Virus record (IMG/VR): IMGVR_UViG_3300030090_002105
Location: 1-57,199 of that record
Origin: a virus
Lineage: Duplodnaviria > Caudoviricetes
Reading direction: 5' to 3' (one strand)
Length of the DNA stretch: 57,199 nucleotides
Position 1 is the first letter of the stretch. Every line of letters starts with the position of its first letter. Position numbers and translations under genes: made by a program. Below the pieces are notes generated by a model. The model searched no databases. It saw only the letters and a program-made list of their open reading frames with translations, and was not told where the DNA came from. This document shows, one piece after another, positions 11,718-40,326 of this stretch.

Positions 11718-12062
11718 TTATTTGCTTCCGCCGCCACCACGCTGAGAACGAGCTGAAGCTGCGTTAGCCCTCATTTTTACTTTATCAGCTTTGTATTTTG
11801 CGTAAGATGTAGTTCCATGCTCTCTCATTCTTTGACCTTTGGGCATGCTATTCCAAGTAGACTCACGCATTACAGAAGAGTCCTTCTTTTTGGGACCACC
11901 TGCGCCCCCGCCTCCGGTAATTTTGCCTGCGGTATTTGATCTTGCTCCTCTAGACCTTGTTCCTAGTGATGCTGATCTAGCACCTGCACCACTTCTTGCT
12001 CCTGCTGCTTTGTTTCCACCCCTGTTTCCTGGACTTCCAGGAGGTCCTGATCCATATGCCAT
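11718..12062 (-). CDS. Gly/Arg-rich basic protein, first gene of the late arm
   Basis: GGAG SD upstream; 114 aa, low complexity. Confidence 0.55.
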   Translation of the reverse strand: MAYGSGPPGSPGNRGGNKAAGARSGAGARSASLGTRSRGARSNTAGKITGGGGAGGPKKKDSSVMRESTWNSMPKGQRMREHGTTSYAKYKADKVKMRANAASARSQRGGGGSK

Positions 12063-12087
12063 TTTAATTCTCCATAGTTGTAAAGTG

Positions 12088-12176
12088 GGGCCGTGTCAGC
12101 AGAAAGGGAGAAGAACCCTCTATCGAGGGGAGAGATGTGCCGACACGTGCCCCGAATATTTACTAATATTATACCA
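12088..12176 (-). promoter_or_regulatory. Candidate late promoter (extended -10 TGGTATAAT) with long leader stem-loop
   Basis: TGGTATAAT on the - strand at 12176-12168, no good -35. Inverted repeat 12088-12101 / 12138-12152 with an inner CCCTC/GAGGG hairpin. Confidence 0.5.
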
Positions 12177-12286
12177 TATTGGGGGGTTCTCGTGTCGCAC
12201 TTTTTAAATAGATCAATCATTTAGCATATATTTTAGCATTCTTACACAATATTTTGCTAAATGGAACCAGGTATAGGTACAGGTAT

Positions 12287-12458
12287 AGATAAATATATAT
12301 TAATATTATATATATATTATATATTATATAGAAGTATTAATATATATATTATAATAAGGGACCACCTTACCTGTGGATAACTTTCCAATTCTCCTTTATA
12401 ATCATAGATTTAACCTAATATTTACCTGTGGATAAGTATGTGGATAACTTGTGTATAA
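12287..12458. other. oriC-like replication origin: AT-rich tract plus four DnaA boxes
   Basis: Nearly pure A/T at 12287-12357. TGTGGATAA (=TTATCCACA) at 12372-12380, 12427-12435 and 12439-12447; TGTGTATAA (=TTATACACA) at 12450-12458. Located at the divergent strand switch. Confidence 0.7.
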
Positions 12459-12480
12459 AAATATACCCCCCAAAAAATTT

Positions 12481-12512
12481 TGGGACCCCTATTTTCTGAA
12501 TGGGACCCCTAT
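12481..12512. repeat. Direct repeat TGGGACCCCTAT x2, 20-bp period
   Basis: Copies at 12481-12492 and 12501-12512. Confidence 0.75.
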
Positions 12513-12726
12513 ATTTCGCCGCTAAGCCAACGGCTATTCCATTCCACATATACCAAAACACCCTATACAGAGATACACATACCATATACCACGTATACAG
12601 ATACCAAACTCTTAGTAAAACGCTAATGTGTTGTTAGTGTCGTTTTTTTATTTATATATATGCGGGTGCGGATCAGGATTCCCAGTCCTGGATCGCCCCG
12701 GTCGGCCCCTCGGAGTACCTTCGAAT

Positions 12727-12742
12727 ATTAGAATATTCTAAT
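12727..12742. promoter_or_regulatory. Perfect 16-bp palindrome ATTAGAATATTCTAAT (operator-like)
   Basis: Seen directly, about 70 bp upstream of the early promoter; function inferred. Confidence 0.45.
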
Positions 12743-12811
12743 TTTCTACACCCTTCTCGCCCAGTATAAGTATATTAGTGGTTTCTTATTGAGCAGAAAA
12801 GTTGGGAGGAC

Positions 12812-12839
12812 TTGCATTTTCTGGTGGTTGTGCTAAAGT
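12812..12839 (+). promoter_or_regulatory. Candidate sigma70 early promoter
   Basis: TTGCAT-16 nt-TAAAGT with extended TG, upstream of AAGGAG and ATG 12891. Confidence 0.55.
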
Positions 12840-12890
12840 GTAGTCACTGGCTGAGGCGACGGGCTGAAGCCACAATAAGGAGTCGCGCTT

Positions 12891-13163
12891 ATGTTTATTA
12901 CCATGAGCGACGGGACTCGCTACGAAGTACCGGCAGAATGTCAGGTCTTTCGGAGTGCTGACGGCGGTAAGATCGGCACCCCAGCGATTCGACAGATTGC
13001 AGGGACTAAGGCAGAGAAGCAGGTATGCAAGGCGAAACGCGACACGCGAAAGCCTAGCCACAGACTGCCTCGCCTTCAAGAAAGCGAGATGAACCGTCGA
13101 ATTAGGATTTGGCAGAAAACGGGTCGCAAAAAAGGCGACGGGTACGCCAGGAAGACTGGTTGA
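12891..13163 (+). CDS. First early gene, basic hypothetical protein
   Basis: TAAGGAG SD, directly after the promoter. Confidence 0.55.
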   Translation: MFITMSDGTRYEVPAECQVFRSADGGKIGTPAIRQIAGTKAEKQVCKAKRDTRKPSHRLPRLQESEMNRRIRIWQKTGRKKGDGYARKTG

Positions 13164-13730
13164 CAGTAGAGGGTGCTGTATGACCCTCTAGTCTCAAAGA
13201 GTCTAGTCCGGCCTAGCGGACGCTAAAGAATGTCTAGGAGTCAATTTGTACCGTAAACCGATGTGTATCGGTTATGGAATGGTACGCCTTAGCGGGAGAC
13301 TGTGGGCTCGCCCTTAAAGCCAGTCAGTATGATGAGTGATCCGTTGCCGGGTCTAACGCAGTCGCGAGGATTTAGAAGTACCTCATAACGAAGTCTAGGC
13401 GATGGCATACCGTGAAGTAACCGAGCGAGGAATCGTTGCATTGTGTGTCGATAGGTCATAGCCTGTTGGGAATATTCAGCCCTAGCGCGTTGCGATGGGG
13501 GGTTGATGACGACTTCGGGAAGCGGGGTGGTGAGCCCTGCGATGTCAGAAGGTCTATTGGTGGGTGAGGGAAAAGCGAGCAAATGCCCGTGAACCATTCT
13601 TAGGACACCAGCATATCATGGCGGGTCAGCGACTTTGGGCGGGGAATCCTGGTCATGTAGAGCGCGATAGGGGAGACTGTTTGAGGGATTACATCCGTAG
13701 TCCGCAATCTCAAACAGAGGAACTGTAACG
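13164..13730 (+). ncRNA. Putative large structured non-coding RNA/leader I
   Basis: No credible + strand ORF; GC-rich relative to the genome; multiple hairpins and two H-type pseudoknots (see findings). Confidence 0.5.
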
Positions 13731-14291
13731 ATGGAAATCATCAAAGATGGCAAGACTCTCGCTACGGCGATCAAACGTGCTGTAAAAGCGATCATGACTA
13801 TGCAGGATCGTGTGCATGAGTTAGCAGTTAGCGCGATGTATCACTACTGGCTTCACGGCGATAGCACGTATCTGACCAATCTTGGGTCTGGTATCACCAA
13901 ATGCAATGGTGTAAACAAGCAGAAGTTTATCGGGTATGTTTCCGAGACTTGTGGCCTTAACTGGGACGTTAAGAACAATCGCTTCAAGAAGGCGAAGAAT
14001 TCTACGTTCACTAAGGATAGCGGTCAGGAGATTTTTCCGCTTCCAAGACTTGAGGCTCAGCGTTGGTATGAGTTTGAGTTAGACACTGAGATGCCTTCAT
14101 GGATGCTCAAGAGGGCGCTTAGGCAGTTGAATACTCAGATAGCCAGTCATAGCGATGAGGCTAAGAGTCAGATTGAGGATGCCTATGACGAGTTTGTAGC
14201 ACTAGAATCCACCATGAAAGAGGTGGGTCTTGGTGTAAGTCAGGAATCTTTCTCTGACGATACTCCAGAGTGGTTGCACCGAGCAGCCTAA
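13731..14291 (+). CDS. Early hypothetical protein
   Basis: GAGGA SD; 186 aa, helical, flanked by the two structured non-coding blocks. Confidence 0.75.
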   Translation: MEIIKDGKTLATAIKRAVKAIMTMQDRVHELAVSAMYHYWLHGDSTYLTNLGSGITKCNGVNKQKFIGYVSETCGLNWDVKNNRFKKAKNSTFTKDSGQEIFPLPRLEAQRWYEFELDTEMPSWMLKRALRQLNTQIASHSDEAKSQIEDAYDEFVALESTMKEVGLGVSQESFSDDTPEWLHRAA

Positions 14292-15010
14292 GTTGCGGGT
14301 TACCCTAGCGATAGGGTAATCCCTCAAGCAGTCAACTACAAGTGATACCTCTGAGACCTTCCGGAGGGCCAGTAGATAGGGCATCTAATGCCGGGTATCA
14401 CCAGTCCTGGGCATGACTGTGATGGGGTATACCATCTAAAAAGGCCCACTAATTTCGTCCTGAGTATGACTAGAGTTAAACTGCTCCGCCTAGGTACGGC
14501 GATAAACTGCCAACTACCCAGATGCTTGTAGAACCGTGGGTGAAGGGTCGATTTACCCGTCAGATGTGCAACGGTTCACCGAATTCCTAAGTCCTGAGTA
14601 TGACTTCATCCTGGTAAACTGCTCACTCAGTGCGTACCAGTAAACACTATGCCAGGGGTATTGGGTAGTAGATTCCCCCACTTCTGGTGACCGTCGAGCC
14701 TGTAATCGTCGGGGTTCTATAATCCGAGGGATAAAAACTGAGGTAGGCCGAATGGACACGCGCTAAACTGTCCTGAGTATGACAGGCATTTAGATCGGGG
14801 TTGCAGATGGTACATATCGCTGGCACTACGGTCGGCAACATAATGACAGGCCATCCCTAGTCGACGGCTCACGATAAATGCAAAACTGCTCACCTGGGGT
14901 ATTGCGGGGAGGGCTGGGTGAGTGAGTAACCTAGCCTACCTAGTAGGGTGGTATAGGGTCATGTCTTAACGGCTCTCAGAGAGGCTTACAGAGCGTCTCA
15001 GGGGCATAAA
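14292..15010 (+). ncRNA. Putative structured non-coding RNA II containing a pseudoknot repeat array
   Basis: No credible ORF; GNRA-capped hairpin at 14297-14322, multibranch stems and 5-6 copies of a covarying pseudoknot. Confidence 0.65.
14402..14891 (+). repeat. Array of mini-pseudoknot motifs GTC-CTGAGTAT-GAC...AAACTGCTC and variants
   Basis: Copies at 14402-14447, 14457-14486, 14488-14511, 14589-14624 and 14768-14891, plus a degenerate copy at 14747-14773. Confidence 0.8.
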
Positions 15011-15025
15011 ATCAGGAGGAACAGT

Positions 15026-15118
15026 ATGTTTGTAGATATTGTGTTGTTCTTGGCCTACTTTGTGGGCTTTGGTGCATTGGTCTTTGGTCAGTATAAACTT
15101 ATGAAACTGTGGAGATAA
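15026..15118 (+). CDS. Small membrane peptide (30 aa), not in ORF track
   Basis: AGGAGG SD; MFVDIVLFLAYFVGFGALVFGQYKLMKLWR. Confidence 0.55.
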   Translation: MFVDIVLFLAYFVGFGALVFGQYKLMKLWR

Positions 15119-15249
15119 TGATGACTACTGAGCGTAAAATTGGCTCTTATGTTGTGCCAGAAGGATGGAATATGTATAAACCAGTAAGAAAAACATGGAG
15201 AATTGTAAGGTACTTTCCATCACCCCCAAAGAAAAAAGAGGAAAAGTAA
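15118..15249 (+). CDS. Small hypothetical protein (43 aa), not in ORF track
   Basis: GGAG SD, TAATG coupling; MMTTERKIGSYVVPEGWNMYKPVRKTWRIVRYFP... Confidence 0.45.
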   Translation: MMTTERKIGSYVVPEGWNMYKPVRKTWRIVRYFPSPPKKKEEK

Positions 15250-15250
15250 T

Positions 15251-15487
15251 ATGGAACTAGCCCTTAATGCTAAAGTTGAGATCAGGTATGGAGAGGGTTG
15301 GTACAAGGGTAGGTACATGATAGTTCGTATTGATCCTGATGGTTCTGAGCGTGAGATGGTCCATTGCGCTGACAAAAAGAATGCATTGTGCTATAAGAAT
15401 TATTTATTGAGTAAGATGCAGTCTGATTTGTATTGGTATCTTGCCCACAACATGGGTAAGGGAGTTAAGTCATTCAACAGGAGATAG
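15251..15487 (+). CDS. Early hypothetical protein
   Basis: GAGG SD, tightly packed. Confidence 0.6.
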   Translation: MELALNAKVEIRYGEGWYKGRYMIVRIDPDGSEREMVHCADKKNALCYKNYLLSKMQSDLYWYLAHNMGKGVKSFNRR

Positions 15488-15489
15488 TT

Positions 15490-15795
15490 ATGTTTACGTC
15501 TACACACAACAAGGGATTTCATATGAAACTCGCTAATGGAGTACACGTTTCTGTTCAGTGGGGGCCAGGATACTATTGCACAAGACGCGATGAGTCTAAT
15601 GTTTTTGATCCTATTAAAAACAGGACTTGGACTTCTAAAACTGCTGAAGTTATGGCATGGACTGATAAGCATCAAATGGGAATTCGTGTTGATGGTGTTG
15701 AATATGACTCGGATGATGTTGTGATAGGTCACTTGGATGTGACTGAAGTGATTGATTTTATTAACAAAGCATCGGAGATGTTTAATGGAGAGTAA
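15490..15795 (+). CDS. Early hypothetical protein
   Basis: GGAG SD; GF...LANG..VSVQWG.G.YC...TAEV motif seen in phage early proteins. Confidence 0.65.
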   Translation: MFTSTHNKGFHMKLANGVHVSVQWGPGYYCTRRDESNVFDPIKNRTWTSKTAEVMAWTDKHQMGIRVDGVEYDSDDVVIGHLDVTEVIDFINKASEMFNGE

Positions 15796-15997
15796 AAAAG
15801 TTGGGTTCAAGTCGGTGTATTATGATGTGATGTTTGTGATTGGAGATCATGCATATCAGCATTTTGAATCTATCCCTTGCGTAGATGATGAACTAACATG
15901 GAAGCATGATTTTTGGTGGAAGGTATACCAGTTCTGTATTGTTAGGGGTATGCCAGATAACTGTGATATGTACTATACTTCTATACCTAATGAATAG
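15785..15997 (+). CDS. Early hypothetical protein
   Basis: The ATG at 15785 after GGAG is the likely start within ORF 15752-15997. Confidence 0.5.
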   Translation: MESKKVGFKSVYYDVMFVIGDHAYQHFESIPCVDDELTWKHDFWWKVYQFCIVRGMPDNCDMYYTSIPNE

Positions 15998-16007
15998 GTA
16001 GATATAG

Positions 16008-16505
16008 ATGAATATTTTTTTCTTACATACTGACCCTGCTGTATCTGCTGTGTGCCAAGTCAACAAGCACATAGTCAAGATGCCGTTGGAAACTGCACAG
16101 ATATTGTGCACAGCACACAGGCACCTGGACGGTGACGGCTACGCAGATCAGCACGATTTGTACAAGGTTGCACACCTAAATCACCCCTCTACAGTGTGGG
16201 CACGGTCCTCAAAATCACACTATGAGTGGTTAATTTCCCATTTTGAGGCGCTACTTGCTGAGAAATTGCGCCGATATCCCCACAGACCACCGCATAAATC
16301 AGGTGAATTGCTTGATGCACTGCGTAAAGTGCCAGATAATATGCCTGATGACGGCTTTATCCCGCCTCCTCAATGTATGCCTGACGAGTACAAGCACAGT
16401 GATACAGTGCAAGCGTACAGAAATTACTACTGTGGTGGCAAAGCACACATTGCATCTTGGAAGTGGCCTGCAACCAGGCCTGACTGGTTCAAGGTGCAGA
16501 TATAG
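16008..16505 (+). CDS. denV: Pyrimidine-dimer DNA glycosylase/endonuclease V family protein
   Basis: MNIFFL..DP...KHIVKMPLETAQIL...HLNHPSTVWAR...PQCMPDEYK...VQAYRNYY. Confidence 0.8.
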   Translation: MNIFFLHTDPAVSAVCQVNKHIVKMPLETAQILCTAHRHLDGDGYADQHDLYKVAHLNHPSTVWARSSKSHYEWLISHFEALLAEKLRRYPHRPPHKSGELLDALRKVPDNMPDDGFIPPPQCMPDEYKHSDTVQAYRNYYCGGKAHIASWKWPATRPDWFKVQI

Positions 16506-30974: not shown

Positions 30975-31235
30975 TTATGTTGTTTCTTTAAAATCTTTTA
31001 TTAGCCCCCCTGTAACAAGGGGGGTTATTTTTTTTACACAACCATTCGGTATTACAGTAATACCAAACCACTCATTATCCTCATCCTTTGTTGTTGCTAT
31101 ACGCACCTCTTCATCATCATGATTAATAAGGTATCCGTATGACCAAAACACTGGCATCTTAGTTTCCTCTGACTTTTCCCACCCAGCCGTAGAAATAATA
31201 TCCAACCACTCTACTTCTACATACTTATAAGACAT
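30975..31235 (-). CDS. Small conserved phage protein, last gene of the late arm
   Basis: VEVEWLDI...GW...SYGYLI...IP.GCVKKI. Confidence 0.65.
   Translation of the reverse strand: MSYKYVEVEWLDIISTAGWEKSEETKMPVFWSYGYLINHDDEEVRIATTKDEDNEWFGITVIPNGCVKKITPLVTGGLIKDFKETT
31002..31035 (+). terminator. Intrinsic terminator of the early/replication arm
   Basis: TAGCCCCCCT-gtaaca-AGGGGGGTTA followed by T8, at the convergent junction. Confidence 0.75.
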
Positions 31236-34200
31236 CTTTTACCTTTGCATAAGCATTCTGCATCTCTTGTAATTCTGTCTGAATCCTAAGAGCGTTAGCT
31301 GTATATTCAGATATTAATCTTTGTCTTTGTTCTTCGCTTATGTTAGGGTCTTTTAAAAGCTTTTTAAGTCTTGAAAAAGTTTTATTAACTTCTAAACTTT
31401 TAAAGTAAATTTTTCTTTGAGCAGTTTCGTCACTGAGCTTAGAAAAGTTAAATCCAGCCCAAGATATTAACGACTCTGGTACACTATATTTAGGAAGTCC
31501 ATCAGCATCAACATTACCATCCATAAAATCAACAGCCATCATGGTTTTAATTAACTGCCCGCCATTGCCAATAACATCACCAGATTTATTTCTAGGCATA
31601 AACATAGGAGGCATCATATAACTAAGAAGGAATGCAGTCATATCTTGGTACTGCTGCATTGGAGGGTCAGCATCATTTGTAATTTCTTGTTTAGTAAATG
31701 GATCGACATTAGTTAACATACCTATCGGAGCCCCCATCCACCCTCCAAAAAATCCTGGAGCAGCAGCAGCCTCTCCAAACTCGCCTTGATAAAGATTCTT
31801 CATCATGTTTATATGAGCTCCCCACGGCAAGAAGTATCCCATATCAAACACCCTAATCCTACCATCTTGATCTTTCCAAGGAAGTATAAGTGACGTTGCA
31901 TTCTTCTCCATGTAATCAGCAACAAGTTTTTTCATCTCTGGAATGTCATCCTCTTCAAGCTCGGAATTATTTTCAAGCAGCATTTGAGCAACTACATATG
32001 GAATAGCGGCATACTTAGCAACAGCAATAGGATGATTCTTCATATTTCTAACCATCTGAGAGGCTGCTTTAAGATTAAAAGTAATAAATGGAGAACCCAA
32101 AGGCATTGTTCTTATAACCCTTACGGCTTGAGATACATTACTATAATCAAGAAGAGCTTCGTTAGCTAGTCTTGCCGCTTCAGATTCAGACTTTCCATGA
32201 TTCTCCATAAAGTCAATCATCTTAGCTACCTTAAACATAACCTCTGTCTTCTGGTAAGTCCTACCAAATACATCCACATAATCATTAAAGAAAACTTTTG
32301 ATCTTGCCCACATACCGCTCCAGCTATCCTCTTTAGCTTTTATCTTATTAAATTGAGCATCAATATTAACAAGCTCTTCAGAGGTAAATGTGGTGCTTTC
32401 AATTCCATACTTCCTAGCAAGCTGAGCATACTTTCCATCGCTTGCGATGTCTGCAATAGCTCTACTTATTAATCCAGGTATCTTTAAAAAGTTTGTGCCA
32501 GATACATCCATCAAAACTATATTTGATATAATATTTCTTGCCTGCGTAGGAATGTTCATTGGAACTTTTGTATATTTAAATACCTTCTGCGCCTTTGCAG
32601 AATAAGCCAATGCACCGTTAAGAAATTCATTATTAGTATAAAGCTGTTCTGATCCAATCACATCATTAATAATTTCTTTTCTAACATACAGCCCACGCAT
32701 AGCTCCATAACGAGGATTGTTAGGAACTTGTTTATACTTTTTAGAATCAGCTACAATTTTATTAGCAGTTACCTTATCAATTTCTTTTTGGATTTCATTA
32801 GCAATTTTTTCGTATGAAATAGCTTTTTCGTTATTGTTTAGTCCTCTCTCCTTTGCTGCATTCCTCATTATTGCACTAACTTTTTCATTCCAAAACCCAA
32901 CAGTTCCTTCTATATTATCGTATTTAACTATTTGATTTGGAAGAACCCAGCCATTATTACCTGTATCAGCAGCCAAAAAAGAAAGGTAATTGATAGTAGC
33001 TAAATCAGCTCCCGCCATAGATACGTATCTTCCCGCCAAGAAAGCAGGGTCTTCTATTCTACCATCAACAACATCCTTTAAAAAGTTTTCATGAGCAGAC
33101 CTAACCTTTGTGTAATTCATTTGGCTAGTTCCAATACCCATAGGTATCCTGTCACCTTTCTCAAGATATTCAAAGTATACGCGAGGAAGATACTTACCCC
33201 TCCACTGAGAATACTGGTCTTGTGTAATAAGGCCAGCAGCAACTAAATCAGAACCAAGTTTTTCAATTTGTTTCTTAGCCTCAACAACTGAATCCCTAAT
33301 AGATTTTTCTTCTGATAACCTTCCTGTCCCCTTGGTTCCGCTAAGAACGGTAGGAAGTTTAGCTACATTAACTTTTCTATTTGGGAGTTTATCTGGAGAT
33401 GCATCCCTTGTTTCAAAGTATTTTATTATCTCCTTCTTTTCTTGAGGAGTAGCTTGAAATATAACATCAAATATAACTCTGCCTTGATTATGCCATTTGC
33501 CTATCTCACCTTTGGTAAGCATTCTTTGAGTCTCTAATTCATCGTATCCTTCAAGAGTCATCAAAGGTTCAACAGCTCTTTGCAAAGTTTTTATTGCTTG
33601 TGTTATTTTTCCTTGCGCTTTTCTTGTGTTAAATCCCTGCTCCTTAGATGCATCATTAATCTTCTTCATTATTGGAAGATTTTTAGATGGACTTTCTGAT
33701 GCAATCCTAGCATCCTTTATAGCATTTACACCAGAAGTAAATGTAAATGAACTAGAAGCTTTAAACTGATCTTCAGACAAAAGAATGTAACTTAAATTTC
33801 CAGGGTCTTCAGATTTATTTACATATTGTATTGAATCATAACCTAAAGATTTTAACGCATCCCTATACTCTGAAGAAAACTTAACAAATCCGTCATAAAT
33901 TTCTCTTGAACCTGTAAATGGTTCAAGCTTTTGAGTCCATTCATTTGCTACAGAAAACAATACTTTATAATCTTTATCAGAGATATTGCCATCTCTCATC
34001 ATTTTGTTTAGTTCGTTTCTCCAAGCTTTCGGACCAGCCCAATGCCCAATGTCATCAACTCCTGTAAATGGATTAGTTACTTTAATGTATCCTTCTGTAA
34101 GCTTTTCTGATTTACCATCTACTATTTTAAGAGCTGCCTTCATTGTTCCAACATGAAGCCCCATCTCTGTAAACTCTAATATGGGTGCTGACCAGTTTTT

Positions 34201-37200
34201 TTCTGATCCATGATAAACTGTACCCTTAACCAATGAATCCTCAATGAATTCATTCCTTGCTTTTGTTTGAGCATCTGCAAGATATCCATCAGCTGCTGAT
34301 AAGTATTGCTTCGGCTCTATATATTTTTCGACAACGTCATCTATGGCTTTTTCTCTTGAGGCATCAAACATCTTCGCCCTTTGAATTAAAGTAGGCATTC
34401 TTTCAATGACTACACCAGCCATAGTATTAAAGATATCATCAACAGTTACGTCTGGTATACTATCAACATCATAGGCTTTAAATATTCTTATAAAGAATTT
34501 TTTAAATGCATCTTTAACCCTCTTCATAAGAGAGGCTCTTTGAAGGTCTAGCTCTTGGCCCTTATACTCAAGCATATGAGCAAGAACTTCTTCCCAAAAT
34601 ATATTATCTTCCCCAATAACTTCTATCGGATTCTTTCCATCCTTTGTTCTAAAACCATAAATAATTTTTCCATAGCCCATAAGGTCAGCAGATACAGGCT
34701 TAGCAAAATCTTTGTATATATCTTTGTAGTTGCTAGCTACTGCATCAAAAGCAGAAAGAACATACATATCTCCCTGTTTATGAAGTCTGCGAACCTCTTT
34801 TATAATTGCAGAAAATTCATTTGAAGACAGCATACTTCTGCCAACGTGGGCCCCAATCTCATGCCATATAAGCCCTCTTATCATATCAGGCGTAACATTA
34901 TCTTTAACTATATTTTCAGGAATAAAAGTAACTGAAGCATTATGAACAAAAGCAGCTGTATCTTTAAACTCTCGTTTTGATTTATTATGTTCTGCGGCAG
35001 CTTGTTTACGACTTAATATCTTAACAAATCCTGTGCTAAACATTTCATTTGTAGCACGAACACCAAATATTTTTTTAAGCTCTTGCCTTATAGATGATGC
35101 AACCTCATCTTTAGAGAACAAAACTTCACCAGATAGGAAAGGTTCCTGTTCTACTGAATCGGAGTCTATTCGTGACTCTTTATACTCTGTAGATATAATA
35201 CCAGTGTCATCATCAACTGTGTCTATATAGGGAGAGTTGTCTTCTACTGGTTCGACATCCTTAATTATGTAGGATTTAATTGCAGCTTCAATTTCTTTTC
35301 TTGTGCCTTTTTTGTTGTAAACAAATGATGGATCGGCTTTAAGTATATTATCAGCAATCGTTCGTAACTCGCTGATTTCAAACCCACCTTGGCTTTTAGT
35401 CTTTGATATATCTTTAAGGGCCGTGTTGGTGTCCAACATTTCTGTCCAGTATTCTGGAGTTAGTTTAACAGCCCTGTTTTCTGCTGTTCTCCTAGCAGTT
35501 TCTTCAGCCTCAGCTGCTGCTTCCGCCCTGATTTCCGCATCACCATCATCCCAGGTCAGCTCTATTAAAGCACTGGGATCGTCTGTTTCAGCAAACTCCT
35601 GCTTTGCTTCACTAGCTGCAATAATAGCATCAGCCTCTTCATCGCTAGAATATTCATCAATAGGTTCTGGATATGCTCTATTAATCTTATTACCAAATAT
35701 ACCATAGTCTGATGCTACAATTCTTTCTGCTTCTTCCTGTACTTCTCCAGCAACATCTACTGGCTCAACCAATTCTGTAGGAGCAGCCTCTTCTTTGGGC
35801 GCTATGTACTTAGCATAAAGAGCATCATACAAATCCTCTTCAGTAGTATTTTCATCATATGGGATATCGTTATTCTCAGCTATCTTTTGTTTATTTTTAT
35901 CTAGAGATAGTCTAAATGAATCACCCTTTTTCCCCGTGCCTGCCAACAAAGCTCTTGTCCCTCTTCCCAAACCCTTAAGGAATTCTCCAGTATAAGTCTT
36001 TCCTTCCGGCCTTGGAACAAAGGCATTACGAGCTTTCTTTTTCTCCCTATTAGCTACAAATTCAGACATCTTATCAGCATAAAGAACAGCATCTTGCTTG
36101 TTAGGTTCTCTCCTTATAACAGTACCTTCAGACTCAACTATAAAACTGTCAGGATTTTCTGGGTCTTCATAAACTATAGCCTCAACCCCTTGAGGATTGG
36201 GAACGCTTGACTCATACTTATCAAGCTCAATACGGGTAGTTGTTGCTTTTGGAATAACAGTTTCAAAAGTATCTTCATCAGAAACAACAGCATCATCTAC
36301 CAGTTCAGCCTGTGTCATGTCTGGGGTAACAGTAGTAGTATCAACTACTGGTGTATCAACACCCTGATCAACATCTTCTACAGTAGGACCAGTGTCATCT
36401 GTTCCTGCTTGGAATTCAGCATCAGCTTCTTGATCTGCTGTTTCCCTAGCTACAGTTGCTTGCTCTCTGGCTATCATATCAGCAATCTGTTGATCCTGAG
36501 TTTGATCTTCGTCAACATCTGTTACTGCTATGTCAGGTGGGGTGGTAGCTTTATCTCTTGGTTTATTAGCACTGCCAGACTGATCTTTATTATAATTGAC
36601 CCTTCTAAGAGGAATGATTACTTCTTCTGATCCAGTTCTAGCATCAGAAATAATAGAATCTTTACCTTTCGATTTATCAAAATCCTTAACCCTATCTCCC
36701 TTTTTGAAAAATACATCTACCTCTATTTCTCCGGTAGTTCCTAACTCTTTAGCAACCAAAGCTCTACCACGCCCCTCATGCCCAACTACCTTTAATCCAT
36801 TATCTGTAATTTCTACATCTATAAATGGAGGGGCAAAAGTTCCACCCTCTTCTGCCAAGTTACGCAAAAAATCTAAACTATCTGAACCTTCAGGCTTAGC
36901 ATCTCTAGATGGATTTAAACTAATAAACTCATCAAGCGTCATTGTAACCACAATGCCTTTAGATTCTTCATAAACTGGATAATTTCTATCAGTAGAATCT
37001 CTTTGATTTGGTACTAATCCTGCTGGTTCTTCTTTATTTTTTTCTACATCCCTTGTAAATACTACCTCACCCTGTGGGGTGGTAGCGGGTGCAGCTTCCG
37101 CGCCTTTAGCGGCGTCTGGAACTACTGTTTCTTGTGCTGCTGCAAATGATTCCTCGTCATAAGGTAATCCCTGCTCTTGCAACTCAACAGGACTAAACCC

Positions 37201-40200
37201 TAGCTCACCCATGTCTTCCATGTATGCATCGAAGTCAGGGTATATTGTTAAGTCTAGTGTACCCGGTATTTTTCCAGTTTCTGTTGCGTCTGGTGCAGTC
37301 TCAGTGGGAGTATCTGGTACGGGAGGGGTAGCATCTGCTTGTGTAGGAGTCTTGTTACCGTATGGATTCATGGTGGTTCCAGGAACTGTAACCGGATCAA
37401 CACCTGCCTCAAGAGCTTCAATATTTTTCTTAGCTTGGTCTCTTTTTCTTATCCATCCAGGCAAAGGATTACGTGGGTTTGAATCATCATATATTCTTCT
37501 CGATTCTAAATCAATTCCCCTCTCCCTTAGACCTCTCTCCATCTGATTTATTCTTAGCTCCATCTCCTCTAGCAAAAGCTTTTCATGCTCAAGATTTTTT
37601 CCCTCAATCAATTCTGATAGTTCTGGAGAGTCAGTCTCTAAAGCATCATCAATTGCCTCTCGCTTTTTTTCAAGCTCTTTGATACGTTTATTCTCTTCAA
37701 GAATAATAGGGTCTGGGTCTTTGATTACTACATTTGAAATATCAGGAACTTTTGCTTGTGTAGTGGGTGCTTCTTCAGGGGCGGGAGGAGTAGCGTCTGC
37801 TTGGTTAGGATCAGGCGCTGCTTCAGGTGGAGCGTCAGGGGTAGTGGCAGCTTTATCAGGAGCAGCATCCTTTTGAGTAGTCTGATCCCCTTCAGGTTTA
37901 AGGGTAGGTAGGCCTCTTTCTTTAAGAATAGCATTAGCCTTTTCAAGTGGGACCGCTTTCCTATAAGCGTTGGCAGCAGCTGTGCCTCCTATGCGAGAAT
38001 TTTTTATTCGTGCTATTTCACTCTGCCTTCTAGAAGCAAATTCTTGAGCGCTTATTTGCCCATAGAAAAATGCATCATATGTTTCGCCAGCCATCTCTAT
38101 AGCTTGTTCTTTAAGCTCAGCAGCCTGTTCTTTTTCAAGCTTCTTACGCTCATCAATCCTTCTTTGAGCCTCAAAGTTTAATCTAGCTTCTCTATCCTGT
38201 CTTTGTTTTGCTGCCTCCCTCTGAGCCTGTAATCTAGCTGCTCGTGAAGAGTATACCCTTCTCCTTGTTGCCCCACCTTCCCTGAGAACCCTTGTCCTAG
38301 CTTCTTCACCAGCTATAGAGGCTTGACCATGATCACCACCAGTCTCTAAAACAACTTCATTGTATGCTTCGTTATAAGCTGTTGATGCCTCATCTTCTAA
38401 CTCTCTACTTGCCTTAGCAAACTTAGCTTCTTCAATATCTGCGGCAGTAATAAGAACATCACCATCAACCAAAACATTCTCGCCATCACCAATAACTGTA
38501 TTGATAACAGGTCTGTTCATTACTTGAGGGCCTTTATCTCTAGCCTTTATTTCTTCTCTTAGCGCAGCAAAACTTCTACGAGGCCTACCCTGTGGGCCAG
38601 CACCGGTTTGATCTGGCGCTGAATCTAATACAACAGAGGGGTCTGCAAAAACTTCTGGTTTAATTGTATCCTGAATAACGGAAGGGTCTTGAGATGGAGA
38701 TCCAAATATTGGAACATCAATATCAGCAGGACCTCCAGTTACAGGAGTAATCACCCTTCCTGCAGAATCTCTTTGTCCTTCGCCTGATTGAGTTCCTCGG
38801 TCTGCTCTATCTTTTATTATAGGCAAGGAGCCTGATTGAGTACCGGAACCAGGAAAGCCTGGTTCTTCTCTAGGGTTAAGAACAGGGCCTCCACCTCGCT
38901 GTACATTAGGATCAACTGTTGTTGGAAGAGTTGGTTCTACTCTTCCTTGTGTTCCTATCGGCGCAACTGGAGTGTCAGGCATTACATCAGCCTGTGTTGG
39001 GCCTGACGGTTCTTGAGCTAGTCGAGCCTCAATCTGTTCTTGAGTTGCAGATGGACCCCTTTGTGTTCCTACTGGAAGAACTTCATCTGGTTGCTGTTGT
39101 CGCTCAGCTTCTGCTGTGCGTGGGTCTTCAGCCATTATCTGGGCTAAAGTTTTTTCTTCTTCTGGTACGGCTTCTGCTTCTGCTTCAGCTTCTTGTTCTT
39201 TTATAGGAACAATTTTATTTATAGCTGCTTCAGAATCAGCTCCCCATATCTTAGCTTTCTTTTTATTTGCTTCTACTCTTAGCTCAGATATTTCTTTTCT
39301 AATATCATTAGATCTTTTTTGAATTTTAAAATCTCTTGGTTGCTCAGCAAGACTTGTTCTTTCTGCCTCAAGTTCTGCAATTTTTAATTCAAGTTCAGAA
39401 TCAACTTGAGCAACAGCCTCTTCCTTTCGGCCAATAATTTTACGAGCAGAGCTTCTGCCGAATCCTGATGTTGATGCGCCAGCGCCAAATCCTAAGAATC
39501 CACCAGCCCAAGCAGCTTCTTGAAATTGAGCAATTTGTTCTTCTGAAAAATCAAACGGGTCTTTACCTTCTTGAGCATTAATAGTAGCAGCCTGAAGAAC
39601 TTCTTGCATACCTTCAGTTCCGGCTTCAGTGAAACTGCTCTGAAGACCAACTTTTACCGCTCTACTCCACCACTTATTTTTTGCTAAGTTCTTTGCTGCT
39701 GCTGCTTTAACTTTTTCCCTTATTGATCTATTTACAAATGCTCCACCAATCTTTCCTGGAACAGCTGCGTCAAGCCCTGCCATAAGAAGAGAGGCTCCAA
39801 GAACAAGACCTTTGTCTACATTTTCCTTGCCTACTGCGTCAACAGATTCTGCAAATGTATCTCCTGCATTCAAAGCAAATGATGCAATACCAGCTCCAGA
39901 TAAAGCTGCTAGAGTTCCGCCACCGGTTAAGGCTGTTGCTCCAGCAGCAGCAAGCGCTGATGTAATCAAAGTTGCGCCATCAATAACCAACAAATCTAGA
40001 AAATATTTAGATAAATCATTCCCTTTCTCACGAGCTTTTTCAAATGTTAATCTATCATACTGCTCTAACTGTGCTTTGTTCTTAGCTCTTACAGCTCCCC
40101 AATAAGCTGAAAGATTATCAAAGCCTGCCCCTTCAGATAAAAACTCTAAAGAAGCTCCAAGAAGGTACTGCATTTGATCAGCCGAAGCACCAAATCTACC

Positions 40201-40326
40201 AGGCTCTTCTTCTACTGGTTGATCTACACTTTGATTAGATATAAACGCCGAACCAAATGGTCCTGACCGAGCTCTACCAATAAGGCCTTGTGTATTATTA
40301 TTTACAACATCTGAATTTGATGCCAT
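31225..40326 (-). CDS. Giant internal virion/polyvalent protein (ParB-like, zincin-like and ADP-ribosyltransferase-like domains)
   Basis: 3033 aa at the end of the internal-protein cluster; GHEGRGR, HEIGAH...EEVLA and VYHGS...NPF...LGYDSI...DQFK motifs. Confidence 0.75.
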   Translation of the reverse strand: MASNSDVVNNNTQGLIGRARSGPFGSAFISNQSVDQPVEEEPGRFGASADQMQYLLGASLEFLSEGAGFDNLSAYWGAVRAKNKAQLEQYDRLTFEKAREKGNDLSKYFLDLLVIDGATLITSALAAAGATALTGGGTLAALSGAGIASFALNAGDTFAESVDAVGKENVDKGLVLGASLLMAGLDAAVPGKIGGAFVNRSIREKVKAAAAKNLAKNKWWSRAVKVGLQSSFTEAGTEGMQEVLQAATINAQEGKDPFDFSEEQIAQFQEAAWAGGFLGFGAGASTSGFGRSSARKIIGRKEEAVAQVDSELELKIAELEAERTSLAEQPRDFKIQKRSNDIRKEISELRVEANKKKAKIWGADSEAAINKIVPIKEQEAEAEAEAVPEEEKTLAQIMAEDPRTAEAERQQQPDEVLPVGTQRGPSATQEQIEARLAQEPSGPTQADVMPDTPVAPIGTQGRVEPTLPTTVDPNVQRGGGPVLNPREEPGFPGSGTQSGSLPIIKDRADRGTQSGEGQRDSAGRVITPVTGGPADIDVPIFGSPSQDPSVIQDTIKPEVFADPSVVLDSAPDQTGAGPQGRPRRSFAALREEIKARDKGPQVMNRPVINTVIGDGENVLVDGDVLITAADIEEAKFAKASRELEDEASTAYNEAYNEVVLETGGDHGQASIAGEEARTRVLREGGATRRRVYSSRAARLQAQREAAKQRQDREARLNFEAQRRIDERKKLEKEQAAELKEQAIEMAGETYDAFFYGQISAQEFASRRQSEIARIKNSRIGGTAAANAYRKAVPLEKANAILKERGLPTLKPEGDQTTQKDAAPDKAATTPDAPPEAAPDPNQADATPPAPEEAPTTQAKVPDISNVVIKDPDPIILEENKRIKELEKKREAIDDALETDSPELSELIEGKNLEHEKLLLEEMELRINQMERGLRERGIDLESRRIYDDSNPRNPLPGWIRKRDQAKKNIEALEAGVDPVTVPGTTMNPYGNKTPTQADATPPVPDTPTETAPDATETGKIPGTLDLTIYPDFDAYMEDMGELGFSPVELQEQGLPYDEESFAAAQETVVPDAAKGAEAAPATTPQGEVVFTRDVEKNKEEPAGLVPNQRDSTDRNYPVYEESKGIVVTMTLDEFISLNPSRDAKPEGSDSLDFLRNLAEEGGTFAPPFIDVEITDNGLKVVGHEGRGRALVAKELGTTGEIEVDVFFKKGDRVKDFDKSKGKDSIISDARTGSEEVIIPLRRVNYNKDQSGSANKPRDKATTPPDIAVTDVDEDQTQDQQIADMIAREQATVARETADQEADAEFQAGTDDTGPTVEDVDQGVDTPVVDTTTVTPDMTQAELVDDAVVSDEDTFETVIPKATTTRIELDKYESSVPNPQGVEAIVYEDPENPDSFIVESEGTVIRREPNKQDAVLYADKMSEFVANREKKKARNAFVPRPEGKTYTGEFLKGLGRGTRALLAGTGKKGDSFRLSLDKNKQKIAENNDIPYDENTTEEDLYDALYAKYIAPKEEAAPTELVEPVDVAGEVQEEAERIVASDYGIFGNKINRAYPEPIDEYSSDEEADAIIAASEAKQEFAETDDPSALIELTWDDGDAEIRAEAAAEAEETARRTAENRAVKLTPEYWTEMLDTNTALKDISKTKSQGGFEISELRTIADNILKADPSFVYNKKGTRKEIEAAIKSYIIKDVEPVEDNSPYIDTVDDDTGIISTEYKESRIDSDSVEQEPFLSGEVLFSKDEVASSIRQELKKIFGVRATNEMFSTGFVKILSRKQAAAEHNKSKREFKDTAAFVHNASVTFIPENIVKDNVTPDMIRGLIWHEIGAHVGRSMLSSNEFSAIIKEVRRLHKQGDMYVLSAFDAVASNYKDIYKDFAKPVSADLMGYGKIIYGFRTKDGKNPIEVIGEDNIFWEEVLAHMLEYKGQELDLQRASLMKRVKDAFKKFFIRIFKAYDVDSIPDVTVDDIFNTMAGVVIERMPTLIQRAKMFDASREKAIDDVVEKYIEPKQYLSAADGYLADAQTKARNEFIEDSLVKGTVYHGSEKNWSAPILEFTEMGLHVGTMKAALKIVDGKSEKLTEGYIKVTNPFTGVDDIGHWAGPKAWRNELNKMMRDGNISDKDYKVLFSVANEWTQKLEPFTGSREIYDGFVKFSSEYRDALKSLGYDSIQYVNKSEDPGNLSYILLSEDQFKASSSFTFTSGVNAIKDARIASESPSKNLPIMKKINDASKEQGFNTRKAQGKITQAIKTLQRAVEPLMTLEGYDELETQRMLTKGEIGKWHNQGRVIFDVIFQATPQEKKEIIKYFETRDASPDKLPNRKVNVAKLPTVLSGTKGTGRLSEEKSIRDSVVEAKKQIEKLGSDLVAAGLITQDQYSQWRGKYLPRVYFEYLEKGDRIPMGIGTSQMNYTKVRSAHENFLKDVVDGRIEDPAFLAGRYVSMAGADLATINYLSFLAADTGNNGWVLPNQIVKYDNIEGTVGFWNEKVSAIMRNAAKERGLNNNEKAISYEKIANEIQKEIDKVTANKIVADSKKYKQVPNNPRYGAMRGLYVRKEIINDVIGSEQLYTNNEFLNGALAYSAKAQKVFKYTKVPMNIPTQARNIISNIVLMDVSGTNFLKIPGLISRAIADIASDGKYAQLARKYGIESTTFTSEELVNIDAQFNKIKAKEDSWSGMWARSKVFFNDYVDVFGRTYQKTEVMFKVAKMIDFMENHGKSESEAARLANEALLDYSNVSQAVRVIRTMPLGSPFITFNLKAASQMVRNMKNHPIAVAKYAAIPYVVAQMLLENNSELEEDDIPEMKKLVADYMEKNATSLILPWKDQDGRIRVFDMGYFLPWGAHINMMKNLYQGEFGEAAAAPGFFGGWMGAPIGMLTNVDPFTKQEITNDADPPMQQYQDMTAFLLSYMMPPMFMPRNKSGDVIGNGGQLIKTMMAVDFMDGNVDADGLPKYSVPESLISWAGFNFSKLSDETAQRKIYFKSLEVNKTFSRLKKLLKDPNISEEQRQRLISEYTANALRIQTELQEMQNAYAKVKDVL

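Follow-up and report, generated by a model that had tools for sequence, protein, structure and literature searches.

What does a gene-free stretch between two small early genes of a tailed phage encode, if it encodes anything? The DNA analysed here, referred to below as the window, is the whole of the 57,199-bp IMG/VR virus record IMGVR_UViG_3300030090_002105 (Duplodnaviria; Caudoviricetes), rated complete by CheckV, and the block in question occupies positions 13164–13730 of it, between a gene for a 90-amino-acid (aa) protein (12891–13163) and one for a 186-aa protein (13731–14291). An initial annotation, made from the sequence alone, had described the block as a large, ornate noncoding RNA of phage origin and, more speculatively, as a mimic of domain I of 23S ribosomal RNA (rRNA). 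The former description is borne out by relatives, among which the block belongs to a conserved, co-varying family of plus-strand RNAs. We are highly confident that this is a real conserved RNA structure of the plus strand and not a relative of rRNA. A fuller proposition, to which we give roughly even chances, is that the block represents, in the window, a large structured RNA family without an Rfam match, that it is placed in an early operon of a clade of uncultured marine tailed phages with an SU10-type portal and that it works in cis as a leader and processing module.

The coding status of the block is readily described. None of its plus-strand open reading frames (ORFs) exceeds 54 aa, and the longest open frame, which lies on the minus strand, has 108 codons in the window versus 76 (also minus strand) in a 95.6%-identical relative, labelled L017 (labels of this form denote the loci of relatives). 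The three longest ORFs gave no PHROG match at E ≤ 1, and a Pfam search at E ≤ 1 returned a single sub-threshold match, to Myb_Cef, from a minus-strand ORF (E = 0.13; 12.3 bits against a cut-off of 27). Perfect hairpins of at least 7 bp, by comparison with shuffled sequence, were over-represented (3 versus 0.17 ± 0.44, a value reached in 1/200 shuffles).

A family of co-varying RNAs and a duplex around the neighbouring gene

Searching with a profile of the 186-aa protein brought in six viral and 22 metagenome loci, all of them marine or uncultured. The order of 90-aa gene, spacer of 440–612 nucleotides (nt) and 186-aa gene was found in 16/16 loci reaching far enough. These spacers are G-rich (G 0.28–0.33, C 0.18–0.22), contain no conserved ORF and are mutually homologous, at 60–80% over most of their length, with invariant islands set among variable segments. 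A hidden Markov model (HMM) of the family, used with nhmmer, detected exactly one copy per locus, giving 14 distinct full-length and four partial members, and all members found lay on uncultured marine phage contigs between the 90-aa and 186-aa early genes. An HMM built without the window and L017 had its sole match in the window at 13241–13740 (E = 2.5e-34). The element ended at the Shine-Dalgarno sequence in 14/14 aligned members.

Pattern-based scans did not enlarge this set. Scanning viral contigs for the leader hairpin yielded 27 stretches, among which family-HMM matches came only from contigs already known, and a pattern of core motifs yielded 16 viral and three genome-contig stretches, with ten new viral and three genome loci lacking an nhmmer match at E ≤ 10. 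No 186-aa relative was returned by a protein profile scan of genome contigs.

The family was also compared with Rfam 15, the families considered being GOLLD, ROOL, OLE, HEARO, group I/II introns, RNase P, 6S, transfer-messenger RNA (tmRNA) and riboswitches. The whole window gave no match at the gathering score, the region 12600–15600 gave at E ≤ 10 only six chance-level matches to small nucleolar RNA, small RNA and cis-regulatory models (E 2.4–7.9), none of them to rRNA, and the loci of nine relatives (33,251 bases) gave no match at E ≤ 1. The models suggested for comparison in the initial annotation, namely large-subunit (LSU) rRNA, GOLLD, ROOL, OLE and group I/II introns, were thus silent, and no transfer RNA or tmRNA genes were found. 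Full-text literature searches returned no description of the element. Candidate structured RNAs from IMG/VR have been catalogued, with motifs of 29–151 nt in the portion of that report drawn on here (PMC10690425); its supplementary lists may include parts of the element, for instance the leader hairpin.

All alignments were made from sequence only with MAFFT, and a consensus fold was derived from 14 members with RNAalifold. It consists of six helices, P1–P6, and a leader hairpin adjoining the ribosome-binding site. P1 closes 300–370 nt, a stack of P2, P3 and P4 runs to a variable apical region, P5 is a hairpin capped by GGAA or GAAA (a GNRA loop) and the P6 arm holds two conserved purine-rich islands. 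Pairing was observed in 93.6% of 596 alignment cells (MAFFT alignment A5), compared with 78.5% after shuffling and 34.5–40.5% when partners were slid by 1–3 columns. Two-sided changes occurred in 27/43 pairs (14.7 ± 2.1 in shuffles, 0/500 as high), and the covariation score was 0.521 versus 0.219. Wobble pairs read on the plus strand were G.U in 94 cases and A.C in 4; therefore, pairing takes place in plus-strand RNA and not in duplex DNA.

Located in the window by consensus fold and covariation, the core domain closed by P1 spans 13258–13624 (plus strand, as for all helices given here). P1 (13258–13265/13617–13624) has seven pairs and an A.G mismatch common to most members, and differs from the family consensus by two two-sided changes (U-A to C-G and C-G to G-C). 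P2 (13268–13274/13418–13424) consists of seven perfect pairs and is followed by P3 (13279–13284/13408–13413) and P4 (13285–13289 and 13292–13293/13393–13394 and 13397–13401); P5 (13426–13428/13433–13435) carries a GGAA loop and P6 lies at 13445–13449/13604–13608. The P1–P5 stack is already present in the unconstrained minimum-energy fold of the window. Downstream of the core, a 3' domain (13626–13674, plus strand) contains the conserved island AGCGACTTTGGGCG and a hairpin CGGG-gaat-CCTG (13640–13651), which, when read by eye, changes on both sides in relatives (CGAG..TCG, CGGG..CCCG) and was not recovered by RNAalifold.

The segment that follows this domain pairs across the whole of the next gene. 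Its 5' arm (13675–13692, plus strand) is complementary to a distal arm at 14316–14333, the first base of which lies 25 nt beyond the end of the 186-aa gene's stop codon; with a hairpin preceding it, this arm forms the plus-strand feature 14297–14333. This long duplex is under selection. A 16-nt core was paired at 16/16 positions in 17/17 loci having that DNA. Within it, one triplet occurs in five versions and the first base can also differ, the opposite arm carrying the matching bases each time. Pairs outside the core also co-vary, bringing the duplex to 18–22 bp (16 bp plus 2–6 more in nine representative loci). In an alignment of 15 sequences across the whole gene, the inner 18 pairs were 100% paired, six positions changed on both sides and one U.G was invariant. 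The covariation score was 0.318 versus 0.125 (0/500 shuffles as high), slid partners paired in just 34–45% of cells and wobble pairs were G.U in 18 cases and A.C in none. L017 matches the window at 100% identity over 14292–14333, which takes in the distal arm and its preceding hairpin.

The 5' arm has two mutually exclusive partners, one distal and one local. Locally, it can form a hairpin with 13697–13717, the 3' arm of which (13697–13721, plus strand) comprises GTAGTCC (13697–13703) and CTCAAACAG (13709–13717) and runs into the Shine-Dalgarno sequence AGAGGA (13716–13721). The inner stem of the local hairpin was paired in 100% of cells, with no two-sided changes, and the outer stem in 73%. 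The duplex was part of the minimum-energy fold of 13640–14345 (−243.8 versus −238.2 kcal/mol with the local hairpin forced), its own energy being −29.8 kcal/mol compared with −19.0 and −18.7 kcal/mol for two local hairpins. Some 20 bp of double-stranded RNA are thus formed from the sequences flanking the gene, as in an RNase III processing stem. Pairing of 12671–12688 with 13637–13654, considered as a second bracket, this time around the 90-aa gene, was not kept in relatives and is therefore treated as chance or lineage-specific.

Words shared with 23S rRNA and smaller elements of the block

The rRNA-mimic reading holds that the RNA copies parts of 23S domain I and thereby draws off ribosomal proteins or rRNA-directed toxins. 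It began with two words, GTGAGGGAAAAGCGA (13564–13578) and GGGTCAGCGACTT (13623–13635), both of which are present as claimed. In the E. coli 23S gene rrlH, used as reference, an exact copy of the 13-mer is found at position 577 and a copy of the 15-mer with one mismatch at 463; the four weaker words of 7–8 nt put forward alongside them all occur, three of them exact and colinear. The block shares 17 9-mers with 23S rRNA (7.9 ± 3.7 in shuffles, 11/500 as high), its longest exact shared word is 13 nt (shuffle mean 10.2, 16/500 as high) and 43 of its 15-mers lie within three mismatches (25.8 ± 8.7, 5/100 as high), in tests that were uncorrected and for which both the words and rRNA as the comparison were chosen post hoc. 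The rRNA-like words are therefore real, and their excess over shuffles is marginal.

This resemblance did not extend to alignment, models or relatives. The best local alignment to 23S rRNA scored 34, a chance-level value (31.3 ± 3.9 in shuffles, 44/200 as high), and the bacterial LSU covariance model RF02541 produced no match in the window at E ≤ 10, while detecting its target in 13/14 control genomes. The 15-mer sits in a lineage-specific insertion in the P6 domain (13515–13600, plus strand) that only the window and its relatives L016 and L017 have, 11 of the 14 aligned members being gapped or unrelated there. The 13-mer overlaps the family-conserved island AGCGACTTTGGGCG, which speaks for a mimic, and is exact in the window alone. 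In the proposed comparison with shuffles and relatives, short words were marginally enriched and not family-wide. Domain I and the block have in common their G-rich composition, the exact 13-mer and the 15-mer with its one mismatch. The block is not related to 23S rRNA, nor can it be shown to imitate it; homology is largely refuted and mimicry is extremely unlikely. An attractive yet unsupported reading of the locus is thereby corrected.

Of the individual structures named in the initial annotation, the hairpin TAGAGGGT/ACCCTCTA at 13167–13190 (plus strand; 8 bp, 8-nt loop) fared best. It abuts the stop codon of the 90-aa gene, and a hairpin of differing sequence stands at the same place in 11/11 distinct relatives, with a two-sided change that preserves pairing in L017. 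It was rejected as an intrinsic terminator, since GTCTCAAAG comes next in place of a U-run, and no terminator-like sites were found on the plus strand of 12000–16100. A −35-like TTGACA (13160–13165, plus strand) overlaps the stop codon of the 90-aa gene. In six relatives, a near-consensus promoter of the sigma-70 type with a 17-nt spacer consisting of this hairpin is found there (11/12 matches in L014, L015 and L032, 10/12 in L030, 9/12 in L029 and L033); a promoter scan of the window called none at this site.

The nested hairpin GTACC..AACCGAT-gtgt-ATCGGTT..GGTAC (13248–13285) is likewise present in the sequence, although only in the window and L017; P2 and P3 use its 3' strands as their 5' strands, which makes it a competitor of the conserved fold. 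The two H-type pseudoknots fared less well, sites of this type being about as frequent in shuffles (28 versus 24.4 ± 6.6, 60/200 as high). The first lies in a 5' module (13191–13254, plus strand; a small copy of the CCTAGCGG / GTCTAGG motif) common to only three other members (92% with L014, ~75–78% with L012) and shows neither informative variation nor covariation there, while the second is better read as a helix GACTG/CAGTC around a small hairpin, with an equivalent helix at that place in other members. The long-range AGTCGC/GCGACT pair was not conserved in the family alignments. At the 5' edge of the element, TCTCAAAGAGTC (13191–13202) is a third near-copy of the arm sequence at 13709–13717 and 14324–14333; it is able to pair with 13675–13686 at 11/12 positions and is not kept in more distant relatives.

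Genome and early operon around the element

The window carries genes of a tailed phage, including an SU10-type portal (Pfam E = 1.6e-44), large and small terminase, primase-helicase and ribonucleotide reductase. Judged by the portal, the nearest cultured relatives are Vibrio phages at 38% identity, and blastn of 12600–15400 against 50,697 phage records gave no matches. Genes run on the minus strand left of ~12.1 kb and on the plus strand right of ~12.9 kb. The plus-strand operon starts with a 2.6-kb island of ~50% GC in a genome of 40% GC, made up of the 90-aa gene, the block, the 186-aa gene and a second gene-free block of ~960 nt. GC content at third codon positions is 0.57 and 0.53 in the two island genes (12891–14291), against 0.33–0.41 in three of the four other genes checked and 0.49 in the fourth (a 165-aa gene, 16008–16505). 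The entire island, RNA and both genes, is compositionally foreign or constrained.

The 90-aa early gene (12891–13163, plus strand), the product of which is rich in Lys and Arg in its C-terminal half, precedes the RNA in every locus reaching it (16/16, 40–88% identity by tblastn). Its protein matched no Pfam family and only sub-threshold PHROGs (best E = 0.016). The 186-aa early gene (13731–14291, plus strand), which the duplex loops out, belongs to phrog_1448 (E = 6.1e-14), a group of unknown function, with the PHROG profile spanning residues 1–163. Relatives of the protein fall into 25 clusters at 49–94% identity. Its structural model (mean pLDDT, the predicted local distance difference test, 76.8) is helical for the most part and had no fold match in the PDB at E ≤ 0.001, weak rows merely hinting at a winged helix.

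More distant homologues of the 186-aa protein (25–27% identity) lie near the left end of Autographiviridae-type genomes, in Aeromonas phage Ahp1 and Vibrio phage 526E57-1. In Ahp1 (L072, 683–1929), the homologue stands behind a 91-aa gene and a 356-nt gap containing a near-consensus sigma-70 promoter; in 526E57-1 (L071, 1941–3010), it follows a 548-nt stretch with promoter-like sites, a two-copy repeat and, as its only annotated ORFs, two short ones of 114 and 120 nt, both on the minus strand. Neither gap matched the family HMM at E ≤ 10 or showed a comparable bracket. The layout of small gene, gap and phrog_1448 gene may be old.

Upstream of the operon, 12200–12650 has a GC content of 30% and contains three perfect DnaA boxes TGTGGATAA (at 12372, 12427 and 12439) besides AT-rich palindromes and direct repeats; gene orientation and GC skew turn there. 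Two to four DnaA boxes are kept ~1.1–1.5 kb 5' of the 186-aa gene in 10/10 loci reaching that region, and this segment is a candidate replication origin. Ahead of the 90-aa gene, 12626–12745 is 72–78% conserved even where the 90-aa protein is only 40% identical; it holds a GC-rich, hairpin-prone segment and the palindrome GAATATTAGAATATTC, and is a possible operator or early promoter region.

Downstream, the second gene-free block (14292–15250) is built of modules each starting with GTCCTGAGTATGAC, with four close copies of this motif at 14404–14784 and a weaker fifth at 15695. In 13/17 relatives' loci examined, one to four copies occur 3' of the 186-aa gene. A 133-nt module of this block (14455–14587) is 97–98% identical in relatives with 80–94% identical flanks, and a 309-nt module is 88% identical in phages with a 186-aa protein only 63% identical. 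Elsewhere in the genome, a 3033-aa ORF lies on the minus strand among virion genes (31225–40326); neither PHROG (E ≤ 0.001) nor Pfam (E ≤ 0.01) gave a match, and it could encode a giant internal or injected protein.

Proposed mechanism, rival explanations and known systems

In the reading we favour, a cis-acting leader and processing module, the RNA would be read on the plus strand, within or ahead of the 186-aa message. Local hairpins would form first, during transcription; once the 186-aa gene had been transcribed, the distal arm would take over and the long duplex would close the gene into a loop. The duplex could then offer a cutting site to a double-strand-specific nuclease of the RNase III type, or close the message, and either event would determine how stable the 186-aa message is and how well it is translated. 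For this decision the core, once folded, would serve as the sensor or protein-binding platform, or it would be released as a stable RNA. The element lies in the 5' untranslated region (UTR), extends up to the ribosome-binding site and has alternative pairings; the duplex, moreover, resembles the processing stems of rRNA operons and the UTR pairing of icaR mRNA, and a cis leader and processing module is therefore favoured. Judged from sequence features, the mechanism itself has a little less than an even chance.

Several observations weigh against this account. The Shine-Dalgarno sequence is not clearly occluded in either the duplex or the local-hairpin state, and a part for RNase III is purely conjectural. 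TTGACA is kept in the window, but the best promoter match there is only 8/12 and the hairpin is 4 nt longer. Folded by itself, the block has an unremarkable energy (z = −1.30 for the plus strand and 0.01 for the minus strand). The fold was counted on the alignment from which it was derived, and the 14 rows represent ~9 lineages, with close pairs (window/L017, L014/L015 and L024/L013), so that the counts overstate independent events. The window's own MAFFT rows were one column out of register (P2 3/6, P3 2/5 and P6 4/6 pairs), and since the alignments used sequence only, its P2, P3 and P6 were re-read by hand in the shifted register. Furthermore, an autonomous module, which might act in trans, would account for the swapping of cores between close relatives no less well than a cis sensor would.

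That swapping is central to the main rival, a trans-acting stable RNA in which the P1-closed core would be cut from the early transcript and act alone. It might serve as a decoy or sponge that draws off a protein of the host or of its defences, or it might join the basic 90-aa protein or the 186-aa protein in a particle. The window and L017 are 95.6% identical in the block and 96.8% in the core, compared with 81.3% in the 90-aa gene, 85.2% in the 186-aa gene and 70.1% in the 5' UTR. L014, L015 and the like, conversely, are 92–95% identical to the window in the block ends and the 186-aa gene (L014: 92–93% in the ends, 95% in the 186-aa protein), while their cores are of a different type and unalignable; the core is therefore exchanged as a cassette at conserved junctions, which fits the trans reading better. 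The same direction is indicated by the self-contained folding of the core, which has a GNRA loop and invariant motifs at its junctions, by the Lys/Arg-rich upstream protein and by a bracket duplex that would part the core from the message. On the other hand, the position of the element is strictly fixed and fused to the ribosome-binding site of the next gene, seven conserved single-stranded motifs had no convincing target in the phage genome at ≤ 2 mismatches (one weak match) and the model of the 186-aa protein, as a possible partner, had no fold match. Taken together, these sequence comparisons make a trans-acting RNA rather less likely than not. We are similarly doubtful of its boldest form, in which the core 13258–13624 would be a new class of autonomously folding phage RNA, traded as a cassette, released by the duplex and acting in trans in host take-over.

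The remaining explanations fit less of the evidence. The size of the core, its GNRA loop, its multi-helix junction with invariant unpaired nucleotides and its place between two genes of one transcript would suit a ribozyme, self-cleaving or divergent intron-like, that cuts the early transcript; this is very unlikely, given that no Rfam ribozyme or intron model had a match, either in 12600–15600 of the window (E ≤ 10) or among nine relatives (E ≤ 1), and that the flanking genes are complete on their own, with the PHROG profile covering most of the 186-aa protein. At the level of DNA, the block might belong to a replication origin, or the 18-bp inverted repeat might delimit a segment able to invert, in view of the three perfect DnaA boxes and 30%-GC stretch 0.7–1 kb upstream (12372–12450, boxes kept in 10 loci), the turn of GC skew and a G-rich transcript, as in R-loop primers. 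However, the mismatches are G.U and not A.C on the plus strand (94:4 in the fold, 18:0 in the duplex), which indicates single-stranded pairing and neither duplex DNA nor cruciforms; one U.G in the repeat is invariant, none of the loci has the 186-aa gene inverted with respect to its flanks and no invertase is encoded nearby, only a 114-aa protein with a bare resolvase-type helix-turn-helix. We consider such an element very unlikely indeed. That the block has no function, as a decayed gene or neutral spacer, would agree with the unremarkable folding energy and with the unalignable cores of close relatives, and is nevertheless most improbable in view of its strong covariation, its conservation above that of the flanking genes and the lack of a conserved ORF, the longest frame shrinking from 108 to 76 codons between window and L017.

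Few large structured RNAs are known that combine strong covariation with the lack of an assigned function, and phages carry several of them. The present family offers experimental handles in its fixed early-operon place, two small conserved partner genes, the exchange of core cassettes and a co-varying duplex of 18–22 bp with a whole gene in its loop. Should this duplex act as a switch of processing or translation, it would provide a clean, testable case of a gene-bracketing RNA stem and would suggest leader-trailer processing of the rRNA kind as a general organiser of long phage early transcripts. If instead the core acts in trans, it would represent a new class of phage RNA effector, and, with the repeat-built second block, the first 2.6 kb of the early operon would be mostly RNA machinery in place of protein genes.

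Among known RNAs, the block is most readily set beside GOLLD, ROOL and OLE. In the descriptions of these classes drawn on here, they share with it a length of several hundred nt, multi-helix junctions, conserved unpaired nucleotides and unknown function, as well as recognition by covariation and not by folding energy, and GOLLD and ROOL share its association with phages. The block differs in being smaller, in not matching their Rfam models and in being fused to a ribosome-binding site, tied to a gene-bracketing duplex and known so far only from one clade of marine phages. The duplex itself recalls the leader-trailer stems of rRNA operons, in which the flanks of a functional unit in a long primary transcript pair over about two helical turns, except that the unit enclosed in the window is a protein gene and not an rRNA. 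RNase III sites of the T7 type, which are local hairpins, share the setting of a phage early operon.

A choice of partners is known from hok mRNA of the hok/sok system, in which a 5' element folds back either locally or onto the 3' end of the message (tac and fbi), with folding order and 3' processing deciding translation. The block likewise has a 5' element with two mutually exclusive partners, one local and one beyond the 3' end of the gene, though no antisense RNA or sign of a toxin accompanies it and the sequences are unrelated. In icaR mRNA of Staphylococcus aureus, pairing between 5' and 3' UTR within one mRNA blocks translation and makes a substrate for RNase III (PMC3868564). That pairing covers the Shine-Dalgarno sequence (PMC3868564), whereas the 5' arm in the window stops 23 nt short of it; in the window, it is the competing local hairpin that touches the Shine-Dalgarno sequence, and a folded domain of 370 nt precedes the arm. 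The block thus represents a new family of large structured RNA coupled to a gene-bracketing duplex, and the kinds of RNA that it resembles are already known.

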